The translations under genes and the position numbers were made by a program. Positions 1 through 21,338 of a stretch of 38,679 bases of DNA are shown here, piece by piece (position 1 is the first letter of the stretch; every line of letters begins with the position of its first letter). Origin of the DNA: a virus. Its lineage: Duplodnaviria; Caudoviricetes. Location: positions 1-38,679 of the IMG/VR virus record IMGVR_UViG_3300030207_000331; one strand, 5' to 3'. The notes under the pieces are model-generated. The model saw nothing but the letters and a program-made list of their open reading frames with translations, was not told the origin of the DNA and did not search any database.

Positions 1-2
1 AT

Positions 3-149
3 GCTAATGCTTTGGATTATCTGAAGAAATTAGCAACTGTAGAATTTTCTATATTCTTTGTTAGAAAGATTGTTGGATTAAGAAGCGAACTTAAAGATTG
101 CGATACTTATTCTAAATTCAAGATTGATAACCAAGACTTAGAAATTTAG
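3..149 (+). CDS. C-terminal fragment of probable AAA+ (MoxR-like) ATPase, truncated by window start
   Basis: Open frame ANALDYLKKLATVEFSIFFVRKIVGLRSELKDCDTYSKFKIDNQDLEI* ends at TAG 147-149. It resembles the C-terminal lid of phage AAA ATPases that accompany VWA/peptidase genes; the call is largely from context. Confidence 0.55.
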   Translation, partial: ANALDYLKKLATVEFSIFFVRKIVGLRSELKDCDTYSKFKIDNQDLEI

Positions 150-170
150 ATTACCACCTAGGGGGGAATT

Positions 171-203
171 AGGAATATTTATTATTAACTAGTAAATATT
201 CCT
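171..203 (+). other. Long hairpin upstream of hammerhead 1
   Basis: AGGAATATTTATTA (171-184) pairs with TAGTAAATATTCCT (190-203): 14 bp with one G-U. Confidence 0.7.
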
Positions 204-213
204 TTTCTGCCCA

Positions 214-268
214 TTCTGATATTGAGATGTGTATCTCAACTGATGACTAGAAAACTATGAAATCAGAA
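214..268 (+). ncRNA. Type III hammerhead ribozyme 1 (predicted cleavage after A221, AUA triplet)
   Basis: Stem III TTCTGAT/ATCAGAA; stem I TTGAGAT-GTGT-ATCTCAA; core CTGATGA 240-246; stem II (C)TAG-AAAA-CTA(T); core GAAA 259-262. Confidence 0.85.
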
Positions 269-294
269 CTCATTTTATTTTTTTGGAGAAAAAT

Positions 295-1260
295 ATGAAT
301 AACGAAAATGTAAATACTTTATCTGAAAATGCTACTTTGGTGCGTTTGAATACCAAACATCCAAGTGGAGTTAAATCAGATAAGGATTTAAAAGAAGGTC
401 TAGCGATAGATCAATCTGCAATGAGTGAATCTTTGCACGTTGCTAAATACATCTTTGGAAAAGAGACTAATAAATACTTTAGAAGAATTATTAATCAATT
501 CAGAAACAATGTTTATTATCCTTTGACTGTTCCATGGGATGACAATACTAGCGACTACGAAGGCAAGGTCTTGAGTGGGTGGCGTTTATGCCCTAACCAA
601 GAACTTGATACTCTTATGGATAAAGTTAACGAAGCTAAGAGTGATTTTGAGAAAGAAGTAAAAAACTTTCTTGATAATTACGACAACTTGATTGATGCGA
701 ACAGGCATAAATTAGGTCAAGCTTTTAAGCTATCTGACTATCCAACTAAAGAAGTCATTGAGACTAAATTCAGATTTGATTTTGAGTTAGGACAAGTGCC
801 AACTATTAGTAAAAGTGATGTGCGATTAAATGTATCAGAATCACTTAGAAAGAAGATTGAGCAAGATGCAATTAAGAGAGCTAACAAGAATGTAGAAGCT
901 ATTACTAGAACTACAGTAGAAACTCTTTTGGAATCCGTTGATCACCTAGCAGAAAAGTTAAAGTCTTATGATCCTAACAATAAGCAAGGTGGTGGATTCT
1001 TTAAGAACTCTAGTTTTAATAAGCTTAGACAATTTCTTGATACGCTACCATCTATCAATAATGATATTTTGGGTAATGACAAACTGATTGCTGATGCTCA
1101 TCAAAAATTAGTTAGCGTGTTTGCTTCTATTAATGATGTAGATTCTTTGAGAGAAGATGATGATTATTCTGCTAAGAAACGAAAACAAATAGCAGATGAT
1201 CTTGAAAATTCTGTTGATGAATTGAAGGGTGGATTCTTAGACAATATGTATAAGAAGTAA
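295..1260 (+). CDS. DUF3150-like protein
   Basis: ATG at 295 follows GGAG at 285-288. Helical protein with YYPLTVPW, FLDNYDNLI and DYPTKEVIETKFRFDF motifs typical of this phage/ICE family. Confidence 0.65.
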   Translation: MNNENVNTLSENATLVRLNTKHPSGVKSDKDLKEGLAIDQSAMSESLHVAKYIFGKETNKYFRRIINQFRNNVYYPLTVPWDDNTSDYEGKVLSGWRLCPNQELDTLMDKVNEAKSDFEKEVKNFLDNYDNLIDANRHKLGQAFKLSDYPTKEVIETKFRFDFELGQVPTISKSDVRLNVSESLRKKIEQDAIKRANKNVEAITRTTVETLLESVDHLAEKLKSYDPNNKQGGGFFKNSSFNKLRQFLDTLPSINNDILGNDKLIADAHQKLVSVFASINDVDSLREDDDYSAKKRKQIADDLENSVDELKGGFLDNMYKK

Positions 1261-1267
1261 GCCAATA

Positions 1268-1316
1268 AAGGGTGGAGAAAATATATTATTTACCAGTAAA
1301 TATTCTTTCCATCCTT
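1268..1316 (+). other. Long hairpin upstream of hammerhead 2
   Basis: AAGGGTGGAGAAAATATATTATT / AGTAAATATTCTTTCCATCCTT forms a ~21 bp imperfect stem. Confidence 0.7.
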
Positions 1317-1367
1317 CTGTCTTTGGATGTGTATCCAAACTGATGAGATCAAAAGATCGAAACAGAA
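1315..1367 (+). ncRNA. Type III hammerhead ribozyme 2 (predicted cleavage after C1321, GUC triplet)
   Basis: Canonical fold: TTCTGT-C-TTTGGAT-GTGT-ATCCAAA-CTGATGA-GATC-AAAA-GATC-GAA-ACAGAA. All three stems pair perfectly. Confidence 0.95.
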
Positions 1368-1396
1368 ACTCATAAAAAATCTTTGGAGGGATTATT

Positions 1397-2698
1397 ATGA
1401 ATAGTGAAAAACGAATAATTAAAGCTAGATCGAAACTAATGAAAGGTAATGTAGGTATGGCAACTATGCTATTAAAACTCACCTTAATTAGAGAAGATGA
1501 AAAGTGTCAAACAATGGCTACTGATGGCGTTAATATTTATTGGAATGATGAATTTGTTAAATCAATAACAGATGAGGAAATTCAAGCAGTATTAATTCAC
1601 GAAGCTAGTCACGTTATTTGGGAACATCCTTTGCGTAAGGGTAAGCGAGATCACCAACTTTGGAACATAGCAACAGACTATGTAATCAATGGGTGGTTAA
1701 AGTATGACTTGCATATGGAACTTCCTGAAGATGGTCTGCTTGATCGCAAGTATCATGGGATGTCTGCTGAAGCAGTTTATAGAACTCTTAGCAACGATGA
1801 TGAAGCTTTAGATGAAGCAATAGATCAGATTAATGACAATGCCAACGATGGTGATGCAGATCAATCTGCTGAAGATGGTGAGACAAGCAATAGCAACGAA
1901 GGTCAAACTCTTGCTGAGAAACTTGCTGACTTACCTCAATTAAGTGGTGAGGTTTGGGTGCCAACTAATGAAGATGGCAAAGAATTATCACCTAATGAAA
2001 TGGCTGAACTACAAGAAGAATTGCAACGAACAATAATGATGGCTGATAAGCTTGAAGGTATTGGAGACGATGCAGAAAGTAGTTTGGGTAAAGCAGTCAA
2101 GCAGATGAATAGATCATGCGTTGATTGGGTTGATGTGATGCGAGACTTCTTACAGTCTGCTATGTCAAAAAATCCTACATGGTCAAGACTTAACAAACGT
2201 CACTCATGGCGTGGTGTTAATTTACCTAGCAACGATAAAGAGCCACATGGAGGTGAGATTGTTGTTGCAATTGATACAAGTGGGAGTGTGACACAAGAAG
2301 AACTTAATATTTTTGCTACTGAAACACAGAACTTAGCTGAAGAATGTGGAGTAGATAAAGTTAGAGTTTGTTATTGCGATACTAGAGTTCATAAAAATTC
2401 ACATGGTGAGTGGTGGGATGAATACGACTTAGAATGTGAAGAACTTGAATTTCATCTTCGTGGTGGTGGTGGTACTGACTTCAATCCACCTTTCAACTTA
2501 TTCAACGACTATACAGATAATACAGATGATGTCCTTGCATTTATCTATTTTACTGATGGAGGTGGATATGTTGATAAGGAGGTTGAGCCAAATGTCCCTG
2601 TTATATGGGCATTAACCACAACTTACTATCAAGACTACTATAACGATATGACTTTTCCTTTTGGAGAAGAAGTAGTTATAGATATGTCTAGTATTTAA
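1397..2698 (+). CDS. HEXXH metallopeptidase + VWA domain protein (DUF2201-like)
   Basis: TMATDG, HEASH zinc motif, WNIATDYVIN, acidic linker, MIDAS DTSGS, GGGGTDF, YFTDG; RBS GGAGG. Confidence 0.88.
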   Translation: MNSEKRIIKARSKLMKGNVGMATMLLKLTLIREDEKCQTMATDGVNIYWNDEFVKSITDEEIQAVLIHEASHVIWEHPLRKGKRDHQLWNIATDYVINGWLKYDLHMELPEDGLLDRKYHGMSAEAVYRTLSNDDEALDEAIDQINDNANDGDADQSAEDGETSNSNEGQTLAEKLADLPQLSGEVWVPTNEDGKELSPNEMAELQEELQRTIMMADKLEGIGDDAESSLGKAVKQMNRSCVDWVDVMRDFLQSAMSKNPTWSRLNKRHSWRGVNLPSNDKEPHGGEIVVAIDTSGSVTQEELNIFATETQNLAEECGVDKVRVCYCDTRVHKNSHGEWWDEYDLECEELEFHLRGGGGTDFNPPFNLFNDYTDNTDDVLAFIYFTDGGGYVDKEVEPNVPVIWALTTTYYQDYYNDMTFPFGEEVVIDMSSI

Positions 2699-2702
2699 TT
2701 AT

Positions 2703-2772
2703 CTAATGCGTTCTAAGGGTAGGCAATTTTGGGGTATCTTATGCCCTTGCCTACTCTTAGAAAATGCGTTAG
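2703..2772 (+). other. Long hairpin upstream of hammerhead 3
   Basis: CTAATGCG-TTCTAAGGGTAGGCAA...TTGCCTACTCTTAGAA-AA-TGCGTTAG forms a ~30 bp imperfect stem. Confidence 0.75.
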
Positions 2773-2800
2773 GCGTGATCTGGTGAAGTCATTTTTGCCA

Positions 2801-2859
2801 AAACTGTATAGGAAATGCGTATTTCCTACTGATGATCGCCAAAAGGCGTGAAACAGTTT
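2801..2859 (+). ncRNA. Type III hammerhead ribozyme 3 (predicted cleavage after A2808, GUA triplet)
   Basis: AAACTGT-A-TAGGAAAT-GCGT-ATTTCCTA-CTGATGA-(T)CGCC-AAAA-GGCG(T)-GAA-ACAGTTT. Confidence 0.88.
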
Positions 2860-2895
2860 AATAACTCTTATTAATGCTTTGGAGGGCAAAATATT

Positions 2896-3141
2896 ATGAG
2901 TAAATTTAAAAAAGAATATGTTTACAAAGTAAGCGAACATTGTATTGATGTTAGATACTTTGAGATAGTTTCTGATAAAAAACTTTCACATAACGAAGTG
3001 ATAGATGCTATATGTTTACCTGATATTTCAAAAGAGGGAGACGCAAAAAAAGAAGGTGGAATTACATCAACTTTTATGTGGACTGACTTTGGAGAAACAA
3101 CAGATGTAAAAATCTTGGGAGAACTTAAAGATGACGAATAG
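2896..3141 (+). CDS. Hypothetical phage protein
   Basis: 81 aa ORF with a GGAGG RBS directly downstream of hammerhead 3. Confidence 0.7.
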   Translation: MSKFKKEYVYKVSEHCIDVRYFEIVSDKKLSHNEVIDAICLPDISKEGDAKKEGGITSTFMWTDFGETTDVKILGELKDDE

Positions 3142-3397
3142 ACAATTGTTAGAATTTACTTTGAAAGTAAACATAGGAACTTGCAACGAAATCTATACAA
3201 AGATTGATAGGCGACTAGAGGAAAGATCAGATATTGATTTGGCTCTAGTTAAATATTTCAATACTTTGGTCACGATTAATCACAAAGTACAAGATGTTTT
3301 ATATAAGCAAAGGGCAGATATGGATTTGCCCTTTCCTAAACATCTAGGATTTAATGAGAATGGTGATATTGTAGAGGTTGAAGTGCAAGAATTATAA
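3131..3397 (+). CDS. Hypothetical phage protein
   Basis: 88 aa ORF with GGAG RBS; overlaps the upstream stop and ends before a terminator. Confidence 0.7.
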   Translation: MTNRQLLEFTLKVNIGTCNEIYTKIDRRLEERSDIDLALVKYFNTLVTINHKVQDVLYKQRADMDLPFPKHLGFNENGDIVEVEVQEL

Positions 3398-3404
3398 ACA
3401 AATT

Positions 3405-3449
3405 AAGGCGTGATGCTACTGTAAAAGGTGGTGTCACGCCTTTTTTTTT
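3405..3449 (+). terminator. Rho-independent terminator of the ribozyme operon
   Basis: AAGGCGTGATGCTACT-loop-GGTGGTGTCACGCC followed by T9. Confidence 0.85.
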
Positions 3450-3574
3450 GGTCTAAAAAAAGCCAACAAGCTCATCAGATTCCGATCCAATGAAAAAATA
3501 TTTACTAGTCTATTGTTTTTCCTGAGAAAAAATCTACCAGTCCAAAATAGAAAAATATTTACTGGTTTTTTCGG

Positions 3575-3606
3575 TGTGGATGAATCTGTGGATAACTTGT
3601 AGATAA
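3575..3606. promoter_or_regulatory. Three tandem DnaA-box-like sites
   Basis: TGTGGATGA (3575), perfect TGTGGATAA (3587) and TGTAGATAA (3598), same orientation, 11-12 bp periodicity. Confidence 0.55.
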
Positions 3607-3609
3607 GTC

Positions 3610-3638
3610 TTGCAATCTGCAATCAGTTATATTATATT
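3610..3638 (+). promoter_or_regulatory. sigma70-like promoter for candidate sRNA
   Basis: TTGCAA-17 bp-TATATT. Confidence 0.55.
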
Positions 3639-3644
3639 GATAAT

Positions 3645-3822: not shown

Positions 3823-4140
3823 ATGTACGCTGTAATTAGACACACATATAAACTAGATATACCTGAGCCAAACAATGTTTATTCAACAAAGTCTAGTGCT
3901 AAGTGGGTGCATTTAGTTTGGTTGTTTGAAACTGAACTAGATGCTATTGCTTTTGCTATATCTTTGTTAGATGATCCTTTGATTATGTCAAATAAATGGC
4001 TGATTGAGGGTGCCATAAAACAATTAGAGGAAGATAGGTTTTATCAAGTTGGTAGAGAAAGTGTAGCTATTGCAGAAGTGCAAGATAGTCCAAACATATT
4101 TTATACAGGAGAAAAGGAAGATGAAAAGTCTATTCATTAG
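3823..4140 (+). CDS. Hypothetical protein (probably leaderless)
   Basis: ORF track starts at 3781, but ATG 3823 coincides with the predicted +1 and has no SD. Confidence 0.65.
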   Translation: MYAVIRHTYKLDIPEPNNVYSTKSSAKWVHLVWLFETELDAIAFAISLLDDPLIMSNKWLIEGAIKQLEEDRFYQVGRESVAIAEVQDSPNIFYTGEKEDEKSIH

Positions 4141-4384
4141 ATGCTCAGAAGAAACCTATGAATTGGCACACTCTTTGGCTAAGAAGGAAAATCGCTCATT
4201 GAATAAGCAGATTATCCATATGATACATAGCGAAGCTGATAACAAAAACATATCTATAGAAGAAGATCAAGCTGAACAGGATGGTAAAGCTATCTATAGT
4301 GGTGCTATCACTAGCGAAAACTATGAATCTAAACTTGGTTTGCGAGGGATTGCTGAAACAAAGAAACAGGATTCTTATGATTAA
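4121..4384 (+). CDS. Arc/CopG-like ribbon-helix-helix transcriptional regulator
   Basis: MKSLFIRCSEETYELAHSLAKKENRSLNKQIIHMI fits the beta-strand plus A..ENRSLN..I Arc signature; purine-rich RBS before ATG 4121. Confidence 0.8.
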   Translation: MKSLFIRCSEETYELAHSLAKKENRSLNKQIIHMIHSEADNKNISIEEDQAEQDGKAIYSGAITSENYESKLGLRGIAETKKQDSYD

Positions 4385-4859
4385 GATACCAAAAAGTTAG
4401 TAGTGCATTAGAACATTCTTGCATTACTAACTCTTTTGTTTCATCTATCTTCTTTGGATTGTTCACCATAATACTCCAAAACTCTTTCTCTTTGGTATGT
4501 CCACACTCCCTTACAATTTTCTTTTGCACCTTTGATAGCATGACTGCCCTTGGAACAGGCTTGATAGAACTATGACTGGTAAATATTCTTTCTGCAGCAG
4601 GTGAGCTTTTCCCCAATGCACCACTTCTAACTATGATTTCAAGATACTTATTGCAAACATTATGCTGTTGTGCGTTTATCTTATTCTCTATAAATGATTT
4701 GTCTATGATGTGTTGGTCAAAAACAATGGCTCTACCCACCTTGCTTTTACCTATTCTTGTAATAGCGACTGAGTTTCTATGATGTAGATAAGGACTTCCT
4801 ATATCATTGACTTGCAATTCGTTAGAACTCCCAATCAAAGTTATCTTCGACTTCTTCAA
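4329..4859 (-). CDS. Hypothetical phage protein downstream of primase-helicase
   Basis: 176 aa ORF overlapping the 3' end of the primase-helicase gene. Confidence 0.65.
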   Translation of the reverse strand: MKKSKITLIGSSNELQVNDIGSPYLHHRNSVAITRIGKSKVGRAIVFDQHIIDKSFIENKINAQQHNVCNKYLEIIVRSGALGKSSPAAERIFTSHSSIKPVPRAVMLSKVQKKIVRECGHTKEKEFWSIMVNNPKKIDETKELVMQECSNALLTFWYLNHKNPVSLFQQSLANQV

Positions 4860-6591
4860 TTTCTGCGTACCTTCCGTTAACAGGATTGAAGGTCATATTA
4901 ACACTTCCTAACTTACCTTGCCAACCCCAACGAGCCTTCCAATTGTGTATTTCTACGCCATCGTCACCTCTATAGACTGTTAAACCTGTGTCTGCTTTAC
5001 TAAACCACGCATAAGATTTAGCTACATCAACACCTGTGCATACATTTTTCTTGCCATCTCTAATGAAAGGTTTAGTTGGATGTGCCACAAAGAATACCAA
5101 TATATCGTGTTGTTTAGCGAACAGTTGGACTTTTGTTAGCATTTCACTAACCATATCAGTCTCTAATCCTGTATGTTCAGTATGTATAAAGTTAAATGGA
5201 TCAATAACTAATACTCTCACTCCATATCGCATGACTGCACTTGCACCTTTCTCTAAGATAGCTTCTATCGTAGGCAACCCACCATCTTGATAATCTTGAA
5301 ACAGTATATGTTCTCTTATCCATGTCTCAGCAAAGTCTTTTTCTTCTTGTGTCATTCTAGTATTCTGACCCTCAAAGAATGGCTTACCTGTAAGGATTTG
5401 AGATAGCTGAACTGCATGAAGTTGAACTGGTTTTTCAAACGAACAAAAACAAGTTTTCCAACCATGATTCCTTGCTACATTGACCACAAGTTGATCTATA
5501 AATGCTGACTTGCCATCTCCTGCATGACCTGTAGTAACAACAAGATTGCCCGTAGATAAAGTAAATATCTCATCAACACTTGCAAACCCTGTTGATACAC
5601 CACTTGGCATACCTTTTTCATACAAGCTTTGGAACTCATCTGCGTAGTGATCTAGGTTATTTAAACCATGTAAAGGTATTGGCTGTGCGTTGATTATGGA
5701 ATCTCTTAGCTTTTCTGCACCATACTTAATCAGCACATCATTTGCATCCTTGCAATCAAAGTTATCAACCCTATAACATCTAGCTTTGTTAAGTCTCCTT
5801 GACAATTCATCAGCTAATATGTTGCCATTTTCATCTGAATCTGTGCATAGAATTATCTTTTCTACACCCTCAAACTTATCCCTTTCATTCCATACATACT
5901 TAAACCTTCCATCTTCGCTTGGATCAATCTTGTTATCTGTGATCTTGTTTGGTGCACCATTGGGAACTGAATAACAATCTACATTCATTACGCCTTCAAA
6001 AGCAGTCTTGATCGCAAGTGTGTCCATTTCTCCTTCTGTTATAACTATTGTGCTTTCTAATGTTGGCAATTTGCTATCATATACCTGTTGACCCCAAAGC
6101 TTTTGTGCGTTCCCATCCCACCAAAAACTCTTGCTTCCATTGGCACTCCTATACTTGACTGCTTCTACCTCATCACCCTGCATGAAAGAAAAACCAATGA
6201 CTGGTTTATTATTTTTTTGCGTCTGGATGACACCCGCTGTATTTGAGGCTGTGATGCTTATACCTCTAGCTTCTAACCATTTACTAGCTTCACCACCCTC
6301 TATCTTCTTTGGCATTTCTACTGGTTTCTTTTCTTCTTTTTTTATTGGTTTCATTTTTATCTCCTCTCTTATTGGCACAAGTCCGTTAGTTCCACAATGA
6401 TGACAATGATATACAACCTTTTCATCATCAATATTTACTGATAAAGGCGTGTCATGTTTGTTCTTTGTTCGCTCTCTTTGACATTGAAAGCAAGTTATTT
6501 TGTGTTGCCCAATCCTCATACCACTTGTTCTTGATTGGCTGTTGATATGATTTAATATATCTCTTTTATCCATTTCGCTATTGACATACAT
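4822..6591 (-). CDS. Twinkle/T7 gp4-like DNA primase-helicase
   Basis: Zn finger CFQC...CHHC; TOPRIM ITEGEMD, SVPNGA, DSDENG, KDAND; SF4 helicase GHAGDGKS, SFE, VIDPFN, VAHPTK; RBS GGAGG. Confidence 0.93.
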   Translation of the reverse strand: MYVNSEMDKRDILNHINSQSRTSGMRIGQHKITCFQCQRERTKNKHDTPLSVNIDDEKVVYHCHHCGTNGLVPIREEIKMKPIKKEEKKPVEMPKKIEGGEASKWLEARGISITASNTAGVIQTQKNNKPVIGFSFMQGDEVEAVKYRSANGSKSFWWDGNAQKLWGQQVYDSKLPTLESTIVITEGEMDTLAIKTAFEGVMNVDCYSVPNGAPNKITDNKIDPSEDGRFKYVWNERDKFEGVEKIILCTDSDENGNILADELSRRLNKARCYRVDNFDCKDANDVLIKYGAEKLRDSIINAQPIPLHGLNNLDHYADEFQSLYEKGMPSGVSTGFASVDEIFTLSTGNLVVTTGHAGDGKSAFIDQLVVNVARNHGWKTCFCSFEKPVQLHAVQLSQILTGKPFFEGQNTRMTQEEKDFAETWIREHILFQDYQDGGLPTIEAILEKGASAVMRYGVRVLVIDPFNFIHTEHTGLETDMVSEMLTKVQLFAKQHDILVFFVAHPTKPFIRDGKKNVCTGVDVAKSYAWFSKADTGLTVYRGDDGVEIHNWKARWGWQGKLGSVNMTFNPVNGRYAEIEEVEDNFDWEF

Positions 6592-8709: not shown

Positions 8710-8875
8710 TAAAGCAATAGACATCATAAATAATGCTTTAATGTTTTATCTAGAAGAAGCTATAGCTTCTGATAAAAAAGAACAAAAGAAACTTAGAGAA
8801 GCTTGGAATGTTCTTCATTATATGGCGAGATACATGCAAAGGCGTGGTGTTAATTTATCTAACAAGGGAGAGTAG
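8699..8875 (+). CDS. Hypothetical protein, 58 aa (not in ORF track)
   Basis: GGAGG RBS; MKINKAIDII...LSNKGE*; fills the gap before the annealase gene. Confidence 0.6.
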   Translation: MKINKAIDIINNALMFYLEEAIASDKKEQKKLREAWNVLHYMARYMQRRGVNLSNKGE

Positions 8876-8876
8876 T

Positions 8877-9599
8877 ATGAGTGATAAAGAACTTACTTAT
8901 AAAGATGTTTGGGACAAGCTATCTAAGATAGATTGTTCAGACAAGATACAAAAGAAGATGAACTTATCTTACTTATCTTGGGCGTGGGCGTGGGGTGTTC
9001 TACAAGAACATTATCCACAGGCACAATATATCTTCTATCAAGGTGATAATGATGTGCCTTATGTTCAGTTTCCAGATGGGACTGCTGAGGTTAGATGTAG
9101 AGTTTCTATTGATAATCTATCAAGAGAGATGTGGCTTCCAGTCATGGATTTTAAGAAAAATGCTGTACAGAATCCTAATAGTATGGAAGTCAATTTTGCT
9201 AAGATGAGATGTCTTACTAAGTGTTTGGGTATGTATGGTTTAGGTCATTATATATATGCAGGTGAGGATGTTCCTAGTGAAGATAGTGATACTGTTGAGA
9301 AAGCTAAACCAAAGAAGGTAGAGCCTAGATCAGTTGGTGGAAGTGCTATGACTAATGTGCAAGAAGAAACTAAACCAGTTGAGCAAGATGATAAAGGTTA
9401 TGGGACTGAAGCTTGGGCAGAACTTTTTGTAAAAAGTTTTATAGATTTAGCCAAAGTGCATAAGAATAAAAAAGCTATGACTGAATACTACAAATCAAAC
9501 ACTAAAGACTTAGCAACATTGAGGGATAGTTTTCCTAAGATGAAAGAGGATTTAGACACAGAACTTAAACAAATCGTATCAAACCTAGAGGGGGAATAA
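8877..9599 (+). CDS. Sak/DUF1071-like (Rad52-fold) single-strand annealing protein
   Basis: LSYLSWAWAW, MWLPVMD, MRCLTKCLGMYGLGHYIYAGEDVP; true start MSDKEL at 8877 after GGAG. Confidence 0.85.
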   Translation: MSDKELTYKDVWDKLSKIDCSDKIQKKMNLSYLSWAWAWGVLQEHYPQAQYIFYQGDNDVPYVQFPDGTAEVRCRVSIDNLSREMWLPVMDFKKNAVQNPNSMEVNFAKMRCLTKCLGMYGLGHYIYAGEDVPSEDSDTVEKAKPKKVEPRSVGGSAMTNVQEETKPVEQDDKGYGTEAWAELFVKSFIDLAKVHKNKKAMTEYYKSNTKDLATLRDSFPKMKEDLDTELKQIVSNLEGE

Positions 9600-12035: not shown

Positions 12036-12371
12036 ATGCTAGTTGATATACTACAAGAAAAGTTAGATAAAAGAAAAAGGAAGTGGTGGGAATGGCACAA
12101 AAAAAATCCACAGGTTTGGGATAAGTTTGAGGAATACACATTAGAGGCTATCCATAGTGGGAGAAAAAAATACTCACAATGGGCGATCATAAATCGTATT
12201 CGTTGGCACAATGAGATAGAAACAAAGGGTGGTGAGTTTAAGATTAGTAATGATTACATAGGTTTCTATGCAAGACTATTCCAAGCAAGGCATCCACAAC
12301 ACAAAGACTTCTTTACACTAAAACCATTGAAAGAAGAAAAAGATATAGCTATGTTAAAGGTTAAGGCTTAG
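12036..12371 (+). CDS. Conserved phage hypothetical protein
   Basis: WHKKNPQVWDKF, YSQWAIINRIRW, FKISND...YARLF motifs; GGGGAG RBS. Confidence 0.75.
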   Translation: MLVDILQEKLDKRKRKWWEWHKKNPQVWDKFEEYTLEAIHSGRKKYSQWAIINRIRWHNEIETKGGEFKISNDYIGFYARLFQARHPQHKDFFTLKPLKEEKDIAMLKVKA

Positions 12372-15300
12372 AACAGGTATATTAGCTCTCTTTCTTAGTT
12401 CTGGCACCATAGCTAGTCTCATATCTCTTTCTAGCTCTAGTTCACGAAGCATATCTGACTTAACTGATACAGATATGTTCTCATCTCTCATCAGTCTATC
12501 TCTACGCTTTCTCCAGTTGTCTAAGTATCTCTCAATCGCTCTTACTTGACCTTTGACATTCAACACGCCTTGCATATTGCTTCTGTAAGCTGATAACTCA
12601 TCAAATCGTTGTTGTTTCTGTAGCGAGTTGATAGTTGCTACTGCCCTGTCAACCTCACCTCTAAGCTCATAGAATTGTTGCTGATAGCCACCAGACTTAT
12701 CTAAATCAAGTAATAGTCTATTAAATACAGGCATCTTTGATAATTCAAAGTTAGAAGGTAGTAGAGGACTTCCTGTAGCTCCTCTAGTGATAGTATCTAC
12801 AACAGCTAATACATATCCACCAAGAGTTCCTGTATAACCTCTCATTATGTGTTCTATCTTTGCAGGTGAAATATTAAGTGATTCACCTAATATTCTTGCA
12901 AATTCATTGGTAGTTGCCCTTGCTTGTAATCCAGGTTCTTTTTGTTGTTGATAGTAAGGTACAATTTCTGTATCAGTAAAAGTATTTCTATTATTCATTA
13001 CTTCTGCTATTGGCTTTAATAATTGTATTCCAGAACCAGGACCTAAAAATGGAATATTAAAAGATGTACTAACCTGTCTTTCAATAGATGTTAAAGCTTC
13101 ATCAACAGACTTTCTTGTAAAAGCATCATCTCCCATGGTCATATCAAACACTCTTTCAGGTATGGCTTTAAATAACATACCTACTTCAAATGGTATTGGT
13201 ATCTTAACTGCATTACCATTTCCTAAAGGAAAAACCCAGTTATCATCTCTTACTTCTCGTTTAAGATTTTTGTATTCATCTGTATCACTTACCATCATAT
13301 AGTAGAGTGCTGTTAGACCTACAAGTAAAGAAGCATTTAAAGCTGTTCTTCTAAGTATTCTTGATTGTACTTCTTTTAGTGATTCTCCGATCTGTTGTTT
13401 TTCTACAGCAGAATATTGACCAGTTAATCCTCTATGTAATACATCAAGACCTTGTATTCTTGCGTTTAAGAATGGTATTGCAGCAGTAATAATTCTAAAT
13501 AATGGATCAGAACCACGCCTTCCAAAATTAATTATTTCTTGTGCCTGATAAGCTGCTTCTGATTGTGCTACTGCTTCAGAATAACCATCTTCTTTTAGTT
13601 GTTTATAAACAACATCATAAACTGCTTTACGAGTTGCACCATCAGATTTAGTGGTAAGTGCTCCAAGACCATCCCATAATTTAAAGAAAGCACCTGTAGG
13701 AGACATTGCATTATTTGGTGTTAATCCTTGTTGTCTCATTGTTTTAGTAATAAATTGTTTTACACTACCTTCATCAATAGAATAATCATAACCACCAAGC
13801 ACACCAAACTGCTCTAATTCTTCCATGCTGCCAAACATATTTTTAACTGAATCAATAATAGGTGTATATGGTGCACCACTTGTTACAGCAGAAGATAAGG
13901 TATCTCTTAAAATATTTATAACAACAAAGCCTGGGTCTCTTGTAACTGTATCTCTAAGAAACCCTGCTGGTATTGCTAAAAATTTTCCTATAGCACCTGG
14001 AGCTACTCCACCAATATTTTGTAAACTATAGACCAGTCTAGGATCATCTACTTGATAATGCCTCTTAATTCCATCCTCAAAGAAAAATAAACTATCAGCT
14101 TTACCTGCATCTTTTGCAGATATTGATTTAGCCAATCCCATTGTTTCTAAATTTTTAACTATTTTACCCATAGCATCATTTTTTAGTGCTGCTGTAAGAA
14201 TAGATAATGAGTTCCTTGATATAGCTTCTATTGGGTCTGCATCAATAATTTCTTCTGAACCTTCTATCTTTATATCTAATGGATTTCCTGGTAGTGAACC
14301 ACCTGCGATTGCAGGTCCTTTAATACCACTATCATCAACCATTTGTCTATAAAAAGGATAATAAACAGAATGTTCTCTCCATAATGCAGATTGTTCTTTA
14401 CTTAAAATACCTTTTCTTTCTGCAAGTTCAATTAAAGAATTATTCCAATTTTGATAATTACGATAAACCTCTACTACTTCTGGGTGTTGCTGTTCTATTT
14501 GTTCTATAAGAGCATAGTCATTAGGTTGCACGGGTGTATCTATTTCTCTACCACTTTCATCAAGATTTTTTGCTCTTTTTAATATGGCATAACTTTTAAA
14601 AACAGCTTCTAAATTAACATTAAGATTAGAAAATAATGGTGCAAGTATTTGTATAAGACCACCTGTTTTTCCAGTTTTATTGCCATCAGCATCAACAAGT
14701 TCGTAAGGTATTGTTTTTACTAATGAATCAACATCATCTATCTGATCAACAGCAATACCTCTTGTAAGCATACCTTGATATACACCTCTTGATTTATCAG
14801 ACATTCTTATTGATTGTTCTGCACCTGCATTTGCAAACATATTAGCAAGTGTTACATCTTTTGCTGCTATTTCAGCTTCTTCTTGTGTCCAAGGTTTTTC
14901 AGTTTTAGGATTTATTCTTAATTTACCTGTTCTTTCATCTATTCCTAAATACCATTCTGTAGTTTTACCTGCTAATAATGTCTTAGTAATATCATCGTAT
15001 TGATCAATATATCTTTGTCTAAAATTAATAAAAAAGTTTTTAATAGCTGTTATAGGGTCTTTAACAATTTCTATTAACCTTGCACCCCAAGATTGATCAG
15101 GCAATACTTCTCCACCTGTTCTTTTAATAAACTCTTGTAAATTATTATCTAATCCATCAAGTTGAGGTCTTGAAAAATTAGGTATGTCATCTGGTGCTGT
15201 AGCAGATAGGTCTCTATTAAAGTCTATAGCAGCCTTTAAGGCTGTATCTGAGGCGTTTAAATTGTAATAAGGTATTGAACCCCTAGGTGTTTGTTTAACT

Positions 15301-18300
15301 GTTTCTTCGGCTTCTGCTAGAGCTTCTCTTAATTGTATATTTTCTTGTGAGTTTGTGCCTGTATCATCTCTCCTTTTTCTACTAAACAATGGCACATCTG
15401 TTATCAAAGCAGCTTTTCTGTTTTCTAATTCTGGAGAATATTGATATGTTGGTTTTATACCACGAAGATCAGCAAGAACTTCTGCTTCTTGTATATATCT
15501 ATCATAGTTATACATTTCATCTCCAAGCAAATCTTCTTGACTTTCTGTACGATTAGGCTCACTACCTGGATATAAAAAGTCTCTAAACTCTTTTTCAAAT
15601 TCAATTTCTAATCTATCTATTTCTTTTTCTAGTTCTTCACGACTTATATCAGATTCAGTTTCTTCAAGCTCACGCTTTAAATCTTCAATTCGATAATAAC
15701 TTTCATCAAATTCTTCTTGTAATTGTTCCAAATCATCTCTTTTATAAATGCCTGAACCAGCATATGAATCTTCAAGCATATCAATATAATCTGGTTCCAT
15801 TGCTTTTAATAATATAGGTACATAACCTTTTACTTTACTCATAGGAACTTCATATCTAAGTATTTCAGGGTTCCATGCTTCACCATAACTTTGTGATCTA
15901 TTAAATAAATTACGACCTATCGATAATGCTTCTCTACTATTTAATGTTGTGCTTGCAAATAAATCTTCTGAAAGCTGTCCATAGTTTTTAATTTTCTCAC
16001 CTTCAGGAATATTTAAAGCTCTAAATAAAACCAAGTTACCTTTTTTATTTGTAAATTTTTCTAAGAATTTTTTACTAGCTCTTAATAAAGGTCTATTCTT
16101 TCTACCTTTAAATGCTTCAACTATAGCCATTTTAAGTGGTGCAGGATTATCTCTGTTACCACCATCCTCTCTACTCATTTTTAACTGATCTAATATTGAA
16201 AAAGTATCAAAGCGATTTTTACTTGCCCAATCAAAAGGAACTTCACTATCATCAGGTACTAAATTAGTTCTACTAAATAAAGGTAACTGTCCTGTGCCAG
16301 TTCGTAATTCTTCTAATCTTCTTTCTGTTTTAGCAACAACAGCTTCTGCATTATAACGCCTTCTTTCAAGAGTAATTTTTTCATCAGGTCTTAATACATC
16401 TTGGAATAATTCTCTTTCTGTTTTATAAACTAAATTACTATGATAGCTAAGACTATCTTCTAATAATTGTTGAGAGGCATTATTTATTTGTTCTTGTGTT
16501 GTTGGAAATCTACTTGGTGCTCTACTAAAGGTAGGTATGTCTCCACCTATATCTACTACTTCAGATGGGAAATATCCCCATCTTTCTAATGAATTACCAT
16601 CCCAACGAACATCACCTGCTTTTAATTCATAAGTAAATAGTTTAGAAGGAGTATCTTCAGGTATTGTTAGCATCTGATCAAATGCATCAAATAGTCCTTC
16701 ATCTCTCCTAGCAGTAAGTTCATCTACACCTCTATCTAATCTATCTTGTATTCTTGCATCTTTTTGTGCTTCTCTTATTTCTTTCTTAGTTATCTTAGAT
16801 TCATCAACAAAAAACTGAGCTTCTGATTTAGATGGTGTTATTAAATCTCCTTCACGCAATTCACTAGTAGGTGCTGCTCTATACATAGTTATAGTTGCAT
16901 TAGGATCACCTTTAATCTTTCTTAATTTATTCATAAAAGCCATAGTTTCTTTATAAATAGCTTTTTGTTCTGGATTATTCATGCCATATGATGCGACATA
17001 AAATTGTGGATTTGTATAAATATCTGAAGGAGAAAAACTATCCCCATCAACTTCTTCTAATAAATTACTAGCTCTTGGACCTCTTGTTAATGGAACAAAA
17101 TCAGCAGCCATACCAGATGATTCATCTCTTGGTGGTCTACTAAATAGAGGCACATCTCTAACATCTCTTGTATCAAGATTAATGCCAGTTGTTTGTAAGT
17201 CTAATGCTGTAGAAGCATTTTTAAGAAATGCAGATAATTCTGTATTAAGTTTTGCAGGTACAGCTAATAATTTTCTAATTGTTTCTACAAATTTATTCCA
17301 TAAATTACCAGTAGCATCTTTACCAAATGGTATAGATTCAAGCATTTCTTGAAACTCTCTATTAGTTAAACCGAATGTTAATAGTTCTGAAACATCACCT
17401 CTTTTTTGAGATTGATCGCTATATAACTGATATTTAATGCGATAGTTTTCAAAATTTCTTTTTCTAGTTTTTCTTAAACCAGTTTCTGTTCTAGTAATAA
17501 TTCCATCACTATATTCTCGTATATATATATCTGCTATTTCTTTTTCTATTGCAGGAGCTTTAGCATAATTCTCTTTATATATTTCTAAGTTTGTCTGATC
17601 ACCAGTGCTGACATCTTGAAGTATTTTATCTGATAAATCTTCATAGAATCTCATCTTACTTCTGTAATAATTTTTAATTCTATTAGCTTGACTTCTTAAT
17701 TCTTCTTGTGCTTTTAATGCTTTAGAACCACCGTCAGGAGATAATTTAGCTAATATACTTGGACTACCTGATGCAGCATAAATTTGAGCTAAGGTAGCCT
17801 GATGTATGCCTTCATGTAATATAGTTTCAAAATTTACACCATTTGGTACATCTGGTGAAGAAGCAATATCTTTTCCAAAAACATCATCTTTTAAAGACAT
17901 AGTATAAGTAAAAGGTTGACCAAATTTATCTTCTCTACCTCTAGCATCAATTTGTCCTCTAATACGCCCTGTTAAACCATTTGCATCTCCTGGTTTAAAA
18001 TTTAAAGGAAATGATCTACCTTGTTTTTTTAATGCTAATAAAGATTTGTGAACTTTTTGTGCAATAATTTTATAATCTTGACTTGGTGAATTATCTATTA
18101 ACCACTTCATCATTTTTACAGAATCATTATTACCTTTAATAGTTTTAGTTACATTACCATCTTTATCAAAAACATCTTTATCTAATATTTTTGCATCTTG
18201 TAAACCTGTAATTATTTTTGCTCTTTCAGCTTTATACTGCTCATCTGATAATGTACGAGAATTATAAATAGTTGTAGGTGTCGTAGGAGGCGTTGTAGGA

Positions 18301-21300
18301 CCTGTTGGTGCAGGTGGCACAGGTGGTGCTGGTTTGGGTTTTGGTATAGCTGTAGGTCTTATGCCTCTAGGTCTTAGAGTTTGTCTTATTTCATCACCAG
18401 GAATTGGCTCTGGTGCTCTTATAACTTCATCTCGTTCCTCTGTCGTAAGAAAACTAGCAGGAATACGACCTGTATCTACAAGCCTTGTAGTTCGCACAAC
18501 TCCTCTCTCTCTTGCACCAACTCTACCAGACTCTATATTATTAAATATTTCTGTAGCACTTTTATACCCTGAGCTACGCATTGCTTGACCCATAGTTTTA
18601 AAGAACTGAATTATCTTATTAAAAATACCATCTACTTTAGGAGGAGTATTTACTAGTAAATCTTTATTTCTAAATAACTCTGCTATAGCTTCTTCTACAA
18701 TATAATCTTCTTTAAAAGCATCAGATAAATTTCTATTTTCTAATTCTTTTCTAGTTCTATCTATGGCTTCTTTATAAAAAGTTCTTTTTTCTGGGTCATT
18801 AGGAAACTTTTTATCTTTAACTAATTTTTTTAAGTATTGATATTCTTTTTCAGTAATTAAATCTTTAGCTCTAAAAGCATGAATCATCTCATGGTCTAAT
18901 ACACCTCTAAGTCTCTCTATTATTTCTACTTCTGTGGCACCACCATCAGGATTAACTGCATTTAAAGATATAAATATAGTATCTGTATTTTTATCATATT
19001 CTCCCTCTACTGCTTCTAATGTTTCTGTAGCTCTAGTTCTTCTTGGATCAAATTTTATTTCTCCATCTACTCTCCTTAATGTAGTAGTAGAAAGTATGTC
19101 ATCACTTACAACAATACCAGTTTCTTTTAGACCTACAGCGTTTAATCTTTTTCTAAGTTCTTTTATAAATTTATTAACTTTACCTTCTTGCAAAGTCTCA
19201 GCATAGTTAATAAATTTAGGCTCTACTTCTACAGGTGGTAATAGTCTTTCTTGTTTTGTTCTTTCTTGTTCTACTAATTCTGCAATAGATTCTGCAGGTA
19301 ATTTGCCTTCTGCAGTAAGTCTTGCACCAAATTCTTCTGGTGTTTCATTAAACCCTTCTGCTTTTCTAGCTATATCAAACTCAAAGTTATCTCTAATCTT
19401 ATAGTTATTAGTGCCTTCTATTTGTTCAGCTCTGCCACTATAAATTAAATCATCTATAAATTGTTTCGTAGCAACCTCATTTTTTCTAATAGAATCTGGT
19501 CCAACTTTTAATAAAGTATTTTTATCAAAAATAATATTGTTGCTCTTTGCATTAGCAACAAAATCTGCCATCTCTTGTGCAGTATAGTTTCTTGGTCTAA
19601 AGTCTGGGAAAGTTGTTCTTGAATTGAACTTTGGAAGTGCATGAAGTTTAGCCAAAAATAGTTCTTTCTGACCTTTCTTCATCTTATTGAACTCAGGAGT
19701 ACCTGTGTATTTTTCTGCTGCATATTGAACAGCAGGTGATTGAAAGTTTAAATCTATATTTTTAGATGCAGCTATTTCTTTTATATATTTAGCTGATGTA
19801 TCTATTGTATCTTTATCTGCAATAATAGAAGGCTCACCTTTTTTCTCAGAAGCTTTAAATACTCCTTGTGCATATGCAGATGTAAATTCATTAAATTGTT
19901 TTGCAGTTAATAATTGTTTAGCTTCTGCCATAGATAATCTAGGATAACTACGAGAAGTCTTACCTGGATTTTGTGCAACAAAACTATTTACTAAACCTCT
20001 AAGAATTACCTCTTGTTTAGAATCTTTAGGCACACTATTAATTAACTGTGAAATAGTTACATCACTAGCTCTACTATCTTCTAAGCTTTGTCCTATCTCA
20101 TAAGCAGTAGAACTATTAATTAATCCTAAGTTATAAGTATCATTATCTAATTTTGATTTTAATTTTTTATTGTTAAAGTCTTGCGTTATTTTATCTCTAA
20201 CTTTAATAGCATCTATTTCTTTATCTTTTATATCAATTTGTACAGGAGCTTCAGGATTGCTAATATCAACAACAGCAAATTGTTCTTGTGGCGTGACTAT
20301 AACTTCTACAGATGGTTCTGCTCCTAGTTCTTCAGGTGCTATTATTTGTGGAACTGTAACAGATGGTATGTCTTGCATTTCTTCAAGCACACCTTGTTCA
20401 ACAGCTTGATCTTGTTTCTTCTGAAGTATTAATCTTTGTTTATTTTCTTCAGACCTTAACTCATCTTCTTCTAATTGTTTTCTTCTTGCAGACTGTTTAC
20501 CAGCCATGCTAGTAACAACTAAATCAGCAGCACCACCAATAATGCCACCAATAGTAAATTCTTCAAACATACTATCAGCCATAGGTAAATCTTCACTATA
20601 AAGACCTCTAGCTGTTAAATCTTGCAATATACTTGCAGCTACCTCTTGTCCACCCTCAAATGCACCAGATTGTAAAGCAGATACTAATCTTTCTTTTGTG
20701 TTTAAATCTGTTTTACTAGATACCTTACCTAATATACTAGCAATCGGTAATACTTCAGTTATACCTATAAGACCACCAAATAGTTCAGCAGTAGTCTCAG
20801 TAAGACCACTTACATCTTCACCCATCTCTCTAGCCATCTGCAGTCTATCGCCTTGTGCTGCTATACCTGTTGGTATTGCTAAAGCTGTCGGTGCTGTAAA
20901 TGTTGGTGATAGGAAGCCTTTAGCTGCTCCTGGTGCCTTTGCTAGAGCTCTACCTACCATACCTGCACCTAAGAAAGGAACAAACGATCCTACGCCCTCT
21001 CCTAGTTTTGTAGAAAATTTGTCAGCATATCGTGGGTCTGCTGCTAATGCAGAATCTTGTCTTAGTCTATCTTGTAAGCCTTCAAGACCTTTATATAAGT
21101 TACTGTCGTTGCCAATATCAAATAAACCAACAATACCTGTAGGCACATCTAAAGCTAAACTAGCAATACCTCTAGGTATAGCTTTACCAAATTCTTTTGC
21201 TTGTTCTAGTGCTGATGTTTGATTTATATCTATTCCATATTCATCTTTTATAACTTCAGCTAATTTTAATCTTGTTTCAACATCTAAATTATCTGGAATT

Positions 21301-21338
21301 TGTATTTTTTTCCCACCACCAATATCATATTCAGTCAT
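12354..21338 (-). CDS. Giant internal virion/ejection polyvalent protein (two HEXXH peptidase-like domains, two ART-like domains, C-terminal LPD38-like domain)
   Basis: 2994 aa. Gly/Ala hydrophobic N-terminus; HEMIH..EEAIAE and HEGIH..SELLT; ITMYRA..ITPS and VLFRAL..STT..EAEVL; INFGRRG..PFLNARIQG, IPIPFEVG, GYTGTLG. Confidence 0.8.
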   Translation of the reverse strand: MTEYDIGGGKKIQIPDNLDVETRLKLAEVIKDEYGIDINQTSALEQAKEFGKAIPRGIASLALDVPTGIVGLFDIGNDSNLYKGLEGLQDRLRQDSALAADPRYADKFSTKLGEGVGSFVPFLGAGMVGRALAKAPGAAKGFLSPTFTAPTALAIPTGIAAQGDRLQMAREMGEDVSGLTETTAELFGGLIGITEVLPIASILGKVSSKTDLNTKERLVSALQSGAFEGGQEVAASILQDLTARGLYSEDLPMADSMFEEFTIGGIIGGAADLVVTSMAGKQSARRKQLEEDELRSEENKQRLILQKKQDQAVEQGVLEEMQDIPSVTVPQIIAPEELGAEPSVEVIVTPQEQFAVVDISNPEAPVQIDIKDKEIDAIKVRDKITQDFNNKKLKSKLDNDTYNLGLINSSTAYEIGQSLEDSRASDVTISQLINSVPKDSKQEVILRGLVNSFVAQNPGKTSRSYPRLSMAEAKQLLTAKQFNEFTSAYAQGVFKASEKKGEPSIIADKDTIDTSAKYIKEIAASKNIDLNFQSPAVQYAAEKYTGTPEFNKMKKGQKELFLAKLHALPKFNSRTTFPDFRPRNYTAQEMADFVANAKSNNIIFDKNTLLKVGPDSIRKNEVATKQFIDDLIYSGRAEQIEGTNNYKIRDNFEFDIARKAEGFNETPEEFGARLTAEGKLPAESIAELVEQERTKQERLLPPVEVEPKFINYAETLQEGKVNKFIKELRKRLNAVGLKETGIVVSDDILSTTTLRRVDGEIKFDPRRTRATETLEAVEGEYDKNTDTIFISLNAVNPDGGATEVEIIERLRGVLDHEMIHAFRAKDLITEKEYQYLKKLVKDKKFPNDPEKRTFYKEAIDRTRKELENRNLSDAFKEDYIVEEAIAELFRNKDLLVNTPPKVDGIFNKIIQFFKTMGQAMRSSGYKSATEIFNNIESGRVGARERGVVRTTRLVDTGRIPASFLTTEERDEVIRAPEPIPGDEIRQTLRPRGIRPTAIPKPKPAPPVPPAPTGPTTPPTTPTTIYNSRTLSDEQYKAERAKIITGLQDAKILDKDVFDKDGNVTKTIKGNNDSVKMMKWLIDNSPSQDYKIIAQKVHKSLLALKKQGRSFPLNFKPGDANGLTGRIRGQIDARGREDKFGQPFTYTMSLKDDVFGKDIASSPDVPNGVNFETILHEGIHQATLAQIYAASGSPSILAKLSPDGGSKALKAQEELRSQANRIKNYYRSKMRFYEDLSDKILQDVSTGDQTNLEIYKENYAKAPAIEKEIADIYIREYSDGIITRTETGLRKTRKRNFENYRIKYQLYSDQSQKRGDVSELLTFGLTNREFQEMLESIPFGKDATGNLWNKFVETIRKLLAVPAKLNTELSAFLKNASTALDLQTTGINLDTRDVRDVPLFSRPPRDESSGMAADFVPLTRGPRASNLLEEVDGDSFSPSDIYTNPQFYVASYGMNNPEQKAIYKETMAFMNKLRKIKGDPNATITMYRAAPTSELREGDLITPSKSEAQFFVDESKITKKEIREAQKDARIQDRLDRGVDELTARRDEGLFDAFDQMLTIPEDTPSKLFTYELKAGDVRWDGNSLERWGYFPSEVVDIGGDIPTFSRAPSRFPTTQEQINNASQQLLEDSLSYHSNLVYKTERELFQDVLRPDEKITLERRRYNAEAVVAKTERRLEELRTGTGQLPLFSRTNLVPDDSEVPFDWASKNRFDTFSILDQLKMSREDGGNRDNPAPLKMAIVEAFKGRKNRPLLRASKKFLEKFTNKKGNLVLFRALNIPEGEKIKNYGQLSEDLFASTTLNSREALSIGRNLFNRSQSYGEAWNPEILRYEVPMSKVKGYVPILLKAMEPDYIDMLEDSYAGSGIYKRDDLEQLQEEFDESYYRIEDLKRELEETESDISREELEKEIDRLEIEFEKEFRDFLYPGSEPNRTESQEDLLGDEMYNYDRYIQEAEVLADLRGIKPTYQYSPELENRKAALITDVPLFSRKRRDDTGTNSQENIQLREALAEAEETVKQTPRGSIPYYNLNASDTALKAAIDFNRDLSATAPDDIPNFSRPQLDGLDNNLQEFIKRTGGEVLPDQSWGARLIEIVKDPITAIKNFFINFRQRYIDQYDDITKTLLAGKTTEWYLGIDERTGKLRINPKTEKPWTQEEAEIAAKDVTLANMFANAGAEQSIRMSDKSRGVYQGMLTRGIAVDQIDDVDSLVKTIPYELVDADGNKTGKTGGLIQILAPLFSNLNVNLEAVFKSYAILKRAKNLDESGREIDTPVQPNDYALIEQIEQQHPEVVEVYRNYQNWNNSLIELAERKGILSKEQSALWREHSVYYPFYRQMVDDSGIKGPAIAGGSLPGNPLDIKIEGSEEIIDADPIEAISRNSLSILTAALKNDAMGKIVKNLETMGLAKSISAKDAGKADSLFFFEDGIKRHYQVDDPRLVYSLQNIGGVAPGAIGKFLAIPAGFLRDTVTRDPGFVVINILRDTLSSAVTSGAPYTPIIDSVKNMFGSMEELEQFGVLGGYDYSIDEGSVKQFITKTMRQQGLTPNNAMSPTGAFFKLWDGLGALTTKSDGATRKAVYDVVYKQLKEDGYSEAVAQSEAAYQAQEIINFGRRGSDPLFRIITAAIPFLNARIQGLDVLHRGLTGQYSAVEKQQIGESLKEVQSRILRRTALNASLLVGLTALYYMMVSDTDEYKNLKREVRDDNWVFPLGNGNAVKIPIPFEVGMLFKAIPERVFDMTMGDDAFTRKSVDEALTSIERQVSTSFNIPFLGPGSGIQLLKPIAEVMNNRNTFTDTEIVPYYQQQKEPGLQARATTNEFARILGESLNISPAKIEHIMRGYTGTLGGYVLAVVDTITRGATGSPLLPSNFELSKMPVFNRLLLDLDKSGGYQQQFYELRGEVDRAVATINSLQKQQRFDELSAYRSNMQGVLNVKGQVRAIERYLDNWRKRRDRLMRDENISVSVKSDMLRELELERDMRLAMVPELRKRANIPVLSLNL

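Follow-up and report, generated by a model that had tools for sequence, protein, structure and literature searches.

The stretch of DNA analyzed here, called the window, comprises positions 1 to 38,679 (38,679 nucleotides, nt) of the virus record IMGVR_UViG_3300030207_000331 in IMG/VR (Duplodnaviria; Caudoviricetes). An operon at its start encodes the end of a MoxR-type AAA ATPase, a DUF3150 protein, a putative metallopeptidase with a VWA-like domain and two small open reading frames (ORFs), and three of its spacers hold the core, stems and loops of type III hammerhead ribozymes. These features are listed below, with protein lengths in amino acids (aa) and stem lengths in base pairs (bp); numbers of the form L001 denote related contigs.

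1..149, + strand: 3′ end of the MoxR-type AAA ATPase gene, an open ORF; 354 aa at full length in L001; PHROG 1297 ATPase, E 7e-60
214..268, + strand: type III hammerhead 1; H17 is A221 (AUA), predicted cut after A221; C10.1.U11.1 mismatch, where relatives mostly have U.U
295..1260, + strand: DUF3150 gene, 321 aa from the ATG at 295; Pfam PF11348, E 6e-9
1315..1367, + strand: type III hammerhead 2; predicted cut after C1321 (GUC); fully canonical
1397..2698, + strand: gene for a DUF2201 putative metallopeptidase with a VWA-like domain, 433 aa; DUF2201_N and DUF2201 regions; Pfam PF13203, E 1e-34, and PF09967, E 3e-16
2801..2859, + strand: type III hammerhead 3; predicted cut after A2808 (GUA); U10.1.U11.1 mismatch
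2896..3141, + strand: 81-aa ORF without a known family, in a slot whose content varies between relatives (from the ORF list, Pfam, PHROG and the relatives)
3131..3397, + strand: 88-aa ORF overlapping the 81-aa ORF, with no ribozyme between them (from the ORF list and the relatives)
3405..3450, + strand: intrinsic-terminator-like site ending the operon, a 16-bp stem with a T run; 7128-7165 in L001

Hammerheads on the coding strand

The initial annotation of this DNA had placed three complete type III hammerheads at these positions, and a descriptor search agrees with it. The descriptor runs in the order stem III, UH, stem I, CUGANGA, stem II, GAAA, stem III′ and requires the core together with all three stems. 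Applied to both strands of the window, it gives exactly three matches, all on the + strand, against one match in total in 300 dinucleotide shuffles; two looser versions gave none in 100 shuffles each. The bare core pattern alone is not significant, with six matches against 2.45 expected and 8 of 100 shuffles reaching six. CUGANGA, GAAA and an NUH triplet (AUA, GUC and GUA) are present in all three copies. Pair 10.1-11.1 is G-C in copy 2 and unformed in copy 1 (C247.U258) and copy 3 (U2836.U2849). The consensus at this position is R10.1-Y11.1, to which U.U is a natural and tolerated exception. As sequence motifs, loop 1 is UGUGUA, UGUGUA and UGCGUA in the three copies and loop 2 is AAAA; the conserved AAAA described earlier stands, and for loop 1 a UGYGUA hexaloop is a better description than the GYGU first given. 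The minimum-energy fold is the hammerhead for copies 2 (z −1.9) and 3 (z −4.4). Judged by its sequence, copy 2 is the one most likely to cleave fast, and copy 1, with its C.U mismatch and a 3-bp inner stem II, may be slow.

An Rfam model search of the window, which had been named as a check on the annotation, returned no ribozyme match at E≤1 and none for any of the three copies, and L001 had no match at E≤10. The gathering threshold of RF00008 (Hammerhead_3), 48.5 bits, was not reached, the best scores in relatives being 38.3 and 36.5 bits, and 12 related loci gave only sub-threshold matches to RF00008 and RF03152. Since the Rfam scores fall below threshold, membership of the class rests on the descriptor, the covariation and the loops.

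The part of the operon that lies upstream of the window can be read from contig L001, which differs from the window by a single mismatch along 8,695 nt. A divergent gene there is followed by a non-coding leader, then by an atypical element of type III, a pair of ORFs, a hammerhead of type I and the ATPase gene. This adds two hammerheads, the atypical type III (predicted cut at 1956) and the type I (2753), bringing the operon to five, with predicted units of 797, 1191, 1100, 1487 and 641 nt. The last three reproduce the sizes first calculated from the window (1100, 1487 and about 640 nt to the terminator). Both overlapping ORFs, of 81 and 88 aa, lie on the 641-nt unit, so that the earlier rule of one ribozyme in front of each gene holds for each separately started gene and fails between these two. 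The divergent gene is, from its position, a putative small terminase subunit; terminase-like genes also lie upstream in relatives, where they were named from motifs and not from a profile match. The non-coding leader (L001:1600-1940, about 340-400 nt) has no Rfam match. The head element that follows it (L001:1940-2017) is hammerhead-like: an AA insert precedes GAAA, stem III is short, and CUGA has an additional A in some cases. Its own GUC is covered by a hairpin whose loop is CUCCAA.

Ribozymes at the gene boundaries of relatives

A survey of related contigs for hammerheads beside the same genes had been suggested with the initial annotation. The relatives surveyed comprise 80 contigs with one locus each, kept from 133 by protein similarity and many of them near-identical, and they contain 311 hammerhead matches on the gene strand and one on the opposite strand. 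A ribozyme was found before the AAA gene in 67 of 76 cases, between AAA and DUF3150 in 65 of 79 and after VWA in 51 of 59. At the DUF3150 to VWA boundary it was found in 37 of 73, and there its presence follows the gap: 0 of 27 where the gap is shorter than 40 nt and 37 of 46 where it is longer.

The misses were inspected by eye. Those between DUF3150 and VWA are the 27 gaps below 40 nt, eight overlapping ORFs and L003, in which A9 is changed. Between AAA and DUF3150, all 11 long spacers among the misses hold cores with large inserts. Seven of the eight misses after VWA are insertion variants and the other, L053, is decayed, and those before AAA are three variants, L106 with a changed GAAA and five loci with a different structured element.

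Several of these variants have a recognizable architecture. In L071:5878-5965, L093:2780-2877 and, after VWA, in L090, L095 and L097, type III copies carry two whole hairpins between A9 and G10.1, and a single U or A follows A9 in other type III copies. The AAA-DUF3150 spacers of L077, L078, L081, L083, L094, L096, L098, L099 and L101 hold, by eye, type I hammerheads with a stem III insert of about 150-320 nt. The different element before AAA (L086:1680-1800, also in L080, L082, L087 and L092) is a conserved multi-hairpin structure (z −5.2) with neither a hammerhead nor an Rfam match.

The type of ribozyme at a boundary is exchangeable. Type I stands in place of type III at a matching boundary in L010 and L104 and in L019, L021, L022, L024, L029 and L034, and genes inserted after VWA carry a ribozyme of their own (L010-L012, L015, L021, L025 and L035). 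A repeat of 13 nt, identical to the type I hammerhead's 5′ arm (L001:2343-2359 and 2697-2711), bounds a segment that is present in L001 and absent in L003, an arrangement that suggests gain or loss of a cassette at the ribozyme.

Covariation was assessed on 28 hand-picked copies of equal length drawn from stem-requiring scans, a set that leans towards structure; both sides change in 12 of the 16 pairs, and 94% of cells are paired against 32-48% in slid controls. It supports three stems, I and II closed by loops and III open. The earlier description of stems that differ between copies and yet stay paired is borne out for most pairs, with the unformed 10.1-11.1 of copies 1 and 3 as the part that does not hold. 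Among 101 distinct type III copies, loop 1 fits UGNNUN in 85 and loop 2 is AAAA or GAAA in 85, and U.U is the commonest state at 10.1-11.1 (62).

The proposal that the ribozymes form a processing system of the AAA/DUF3150/VWA module itself did not survive. A DNA-pattern scan of the viral collection found at least 132 loci, and among the matches listed 125 ribozymes have a downstream ORF: 28 encode DUF3150, 25 VWA, 6 AAA and 66 other proteins, the last falling into at least 27 clusters (those of ≥40 aa, among the matches listed). Besides these other genes and the 0 of 27 at abutting DUF3150 and VWA genes, no hammerhead was found at six distant loci with two or three module genes (three cultured phages, two bacterial contigs and one plasmid). 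We therefore reject specificity for the module.

A cassette of hairpin, ribozyme and looped Shine-Dalgarno sequence

Each of the three window copies sits in the same order of elements: a hairpin upstream, here called the guard hairpin, then the ribozyme, then the Shine-Dalgarno sequence of the next gene in a UUGGAG loop.

161..212, + strand: guard hairpin 1, which stops 9 nt short of the cut; ACYRGTAAATAT at 188-199 (fold of 150-290, z −3.9)
276..295, + strand: Shine-Dalgarno hairpin 1, 7 bp, loop UUGGAG at 283-288 (z −0.06)
1268..1316, + strand: guard hairpin 2; ACYRGTAAATAT motif at 1292-1303 (fold of 1258-1400, z −2.6)
1378..1393, + strand: Shine-Dalgarno hairpin 2, 5 bp, loop UUGGAG at 1383-1388 (z −2.4)
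2702..2800, + strand: guard hairpins 3 (2702-2773 and 2781-2800), without the ACYRGTAAATAT motif (fold of 2700-2800, z −7.2)
2875..2888, + strand: Shine-Dalgarno hairpin 3, 4 bp, loop UUGGAG at 2879-2884 (z −0.4)

The association of the loop with the ribozyme is seen at several distances. In the window, a UUGGAG hexaloop presents the Shine-Dalgarno sequence at 3 of 3 ribozyme-preceded starts and at 0 of 11 other starts with GGAG. In the close group it is looped at 50 of 53 ribozyme-preceded starts and 7 of 61 others, with varied, paired stems in 32 contexts, and in farther loci at 24 of 61 against 14 of 77. Exposure of the Shine-Dalgarno sequences of the three window genes by cleavage was considered and rejected, as no change is predicted.

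The side on which the extra hairpin lies depends on the type of ribozyme. Among 101 distinct type III copies, z<−2 is reached upstream in 70 and downstream in 13; among 59 distinct type I copies it is reached downstream in 40 and upstream in 14. The windows were 60 and 30 nt, so the two sides are not strictly comparable. The median distance from the end of an upstream hairpin to the cut is 9 nt; in 103 of 111 it is the sense strand that gives the more stable fold, and G.U number 32 against 11 A.C. A ACYRGTAAATAT-type motif occurs in 69 of these 111. In the window, exact copies of ACYRGTAAATAT number seven, at 188 (+), 1292 (+), 3498 (−), 3555 (−), 4575 (+), 11579 (−) and 12003 (−). The motif is half of a near-palindrome that has 18 matches with ≤1 mismatch against 3.5 expected and is possibly an operator. 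The spacer hairpins were also considered as terminators or sigma-70 promoters, and neither was retained: they were not called terminators, and promoter-like sites are below chance (14 against 24).

The structure model of the DUF3150 protein has a predicted local distance difference test (pLDDT) score of 79.5 and a predicted template modeling (pTM) score of 0.50. It has no PDB match at E≤0.001, and its eight viral matches are all uncharacterised, unnamed or DUF3150 proteins, so that assignment of a function from structure was abandoned. The name DUF3150 itself appears in one unrelated preprint. A link to the IncC hde anti-restriction pair Vcrx089/090 was not established; tblastn of plasmids with the AAA gene gave 111 records, with no enterobacterial or Vibrio genus in the ten commonest genera or the best 15 of 111. 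A prophage search for a host found only two distant Terriglobales contigs of 23-25% identity, without hammerheads.

Elsewhere in the window, the region ahead of the next operon (3585-3640) has a 9-mer resembling what we take to be the DnaA-box motif and a sigma-70-like site at 3610-3638. It is followed by an ORF for an Arc-like repressor (4070-4384), a primase-helicase (4822-6591, −), a Sak recombinase (8808-9599, +), a 2994-aa LPD38 protein (12354-21338, −), a row of CHASE2-cyclase, FecR and CsgG genes (29976-34278, −) and a 2OG-Fe(II) oxygenase (37044-37739, −).

Probable processing of the transcript and its precedents

We consider it probable that the hammerheads cut the operon transcript into gene-sized units with protected ends. 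Self-cleavage of this kind is the best reading; it is supported by the covariation, the strand bias, the conservation at boundaries and tested precedents (PMC3088659). A single transcript would start upstream of the window at a putative promoter, divergent from the small terminase gene, and stop at 3405-3450. Its five hammerheads would fold in cis, with UGYGUA and AAAA loops docking as in viroid hammerheads, and cuts after 221, 1321 and 2808 would give separate messages whose ends are shielded from decay. Hammerhead cleavage leaves a 2′,3′-cyclic phosphate and a 5′-OH. Here a strong hairpin, about 9 nt short of the cut, would close the upstream product, and stem I would open the downstream one; type I copies would leave their stems on the upstream product, the extra hairpin then lying downstream. 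With the extra hairpin on one side and a ribozyme stem on the other, both new ends would be structured, and the new 5′ end would lack the monophosphate preferred by the RNase E sensor. Each gene would also receive a fixed leader of 64-88 nt, with its Shine-Dalgarno sequence in a UUGGAG loop, regardless of what lies upstream. A fixed leader per gene could make genes addable or droppable as plug-in cassettes.

Several observations weigh against this interpretation. Copy 1 misfolds at minimum energy, not as a hammerhead (z −1.5), and its C.U state at 10.1-11.1 occurs in only 1 of 101 distinct type III sequences. Equilibrium folding in context forms stem III to only 22-46%, since the core CUGA offers the 3′ strand of this stem another partner. 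Decayed copies exist among relatives (L003, L053 and L106), and the counts overstate the number of independent events, since the loci include many near-identical ones and a stem-requiring scan supplied the aligned sequences. The Shine-Dalgarno hairpins are individually weak, with the z values listed above, and access to the Shine-Dalgarno sequences is predicted to be barely altered by the cut (0.69 to 0.62, 0.68 to 0.68 and 0.67 to 0.72). RNase J1 degrades the 5′-OH fragment of glmS, and by that analogy the 5′-OH end may invite decay where the host has RNase J. Whether cutting slows or speeds decay would therefore depend on the host, since RNase E prefers a 5′ monophosphate and RNase J1 attacks a 5′-OH.

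The same chemistry allows a different use of the cuts, in which cleavage shortens or grades mRNA life, as an operon shut-off or to set product stoichiometry, with the speeds of the copies determining the ratios. The core variants do differ by position (G-C, U.U, C.U, a U or A after A9, AA inserted), 5′-OH ends trigger RNase J1 decay of glmS mRNA, and different stabilities or translation are listed as the suggested outcome in the text of Weinberg et al. (2019). We regard this as unlikely, as the extra hairpins sit on the otherwise bare side of the cut and the variants replace one another freely at a single boundary, contrary to expectation for rates tuned gene by gene.

A translational switch, in which the CUCCAA loop of the head element, upstream of its own cut, kisses the UUGGAG loops and gates all units, is likewise a doubtful prospect. 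The head hairpin, with an invariant CUCCAA loop on five stem variants, occurs in 39 of 43 close loci and covers the GUC of the head ribozyme, as described above. Of the starts with a ribozyme before them, 51 of 53 have UUGGAG, compared with 9 of 61 other starts; with the 16S tail sequence that we assumed, the two U's of UUGGAG give no additional pairing. Against a switch, no compensatory change is seen where adjacent loops are AUGGAG (L019, L032, L100, L025, L026 and L031), the head loop there still being CUCCAA; the 6-bp helix is worth only −6.3 kcal/mol; UUGGAG drops to 24 of 61 in farther loci; and the head element lies outside the window. Combining this idea with processing, one can picture an RNA-only expression circuit of end-protected units and a leader of about 350 nt released at the head, whose CUCCAA would kiss UUGGAG loops in trans and switch or time translation. 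We hold such a circuit to be improbable as well; if true, a ribozyme would here be producing a natural antisense regulator whose address code consists of loop-loop contacts.

It is less likely still that the spacers are kept chiefly as DNA elements, an operator or a recombination repeat, with the hammerheads as passengers. The seven exact ACYRGTAAATAT copies include minus-strand ones and ones away from hammerheads, the motif is flipped between orthologous hairpins (L011 and L013), and the L001 segment missing from L003 lies between copies of the 13-nt repeat that equals the 5′ arm of type I. On the other side, stems covary around a catalytic core and two loops that hardly vary, type I and type III replace each other with little shared linear sequence, hairpin 3 is without the motif and the hammerhead matches are strand-specific. 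Hammerheads are capable of ligation, RtcB-type ligases accept 5′-OH and cyclic-phosphate ends, and the predicted units are bounded by just such ends. Cutting and re-ligation by adjacent hammerheads into circular or spliced mRNAs is nevertheless highly improbable, given that the stem III strand released by the cut is able to base-pair with the core (98 of 103 sequences have YAG), which would hinder re-ligation, and that Perreault et al. report having sought such products in three clusters and found none.

Processing into end-protected units, the interpretation that we prefer, has a clear precedent, and the principle of phage transcripts clustered with hammerheads has been in print since 2011 (PMC3088659). 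The initial annotation, which took only isolated phage hammerheads to be known, had overlooked it. According to the text of Perreault et al. (2011), multiple hammerheads flank single genes in prophages, with processing into single-gene mRNAs proposed; three triple arrays were cleaved in vitro and one also in E. coli. The clusters described there include prophage polycistrons of Clostridium scindens, Azorhizobium caulinodans and Agrobacterium tumefaciens, and a natural U10.1-U11.1 variant is among the sequences given. Both systems have several coding-strand, cis-acting hammerheads that bracket single genes or short blocks of varying identity, and the same processing is proposed. The present case differs in belonging to a large uncultured lineage and in having type III copies of the loop-loop rather than the pseudoknot kind, with cleavage predicted from sequence. 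The text of PMC3088659 mentions none of the three-part cassette, the exchange of type I and type III or the absence at abutting genes. Full-text literature searches and a word search of the supplements of that article brought up nothing on type exchange in such arrays or on guard hairpins or looped Shine-Dalgarno sequences in them; the loop-1 word has no match in its Dataset S1, a weak negative as the alignments hold gaps.

In topology, core, UN3UA hexaloop 1 and AAAA tetraloop 2 the copies agree with type III hammerheads of Rfam RF00008, and they fit the UN3YN/RN2A form of the loop motif (UNmYN / RNnA) given in the text of Dufour et al. (PMC2632901). They differ in that U.U and not G-C stands at 10.1-11.1 in 62 of 101, that they lie in intergenic phage DNA and not viroid RNA, and that the related type III copy in L073 remains at 36.5 bits. 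Related type I copies score 28-36 bits with RAGATH-1 (RF03152), all below its cut-off of 56.3. With copies below Rfam thresholds, the number of such arrays is likely underestimated.

Near phage genes, self-cleaving ribozymes occur in clusters, and the articles describing this leave their role open (PMC6765202, PMC5737381, PMC4604425), the first calling it largely open; the text of Weinberg et al. (2019) likewise treats their purpose as unresolved. The lineage offers natural contrasts, namely the same boundary with type I, type III or no ribozyme, spacered and abutting genes, and canonical and mismatched cores. These make the hypothesis of processing and insulation testable with short constructs.

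The closest functional parallel is an engineered one. In RiboJ, the hammerhead of satellite tobacco ringspot virus (sTRSV) and a hairpin precede a ribosome binding site, and that article reports mRNA up about twofold and protein up 2- to 10-fold (PMC6206723). In both, a hammerhead plus a hairpin would give each gene a fixed, structured 5′ leader. RiboJ follows a promoter, whereas the cassette here is natural, is repeated inside an operon and adds a 3′ hairpin on the upstream product and a looped Shine-Dalgarno sequence, making it a candidate natural analogue of RiboJ. Taken together, the array appears by sequence to belong with, and would work like, the clustered phage hammerheads of 2011, and its new part is the repeated three-part cassette.

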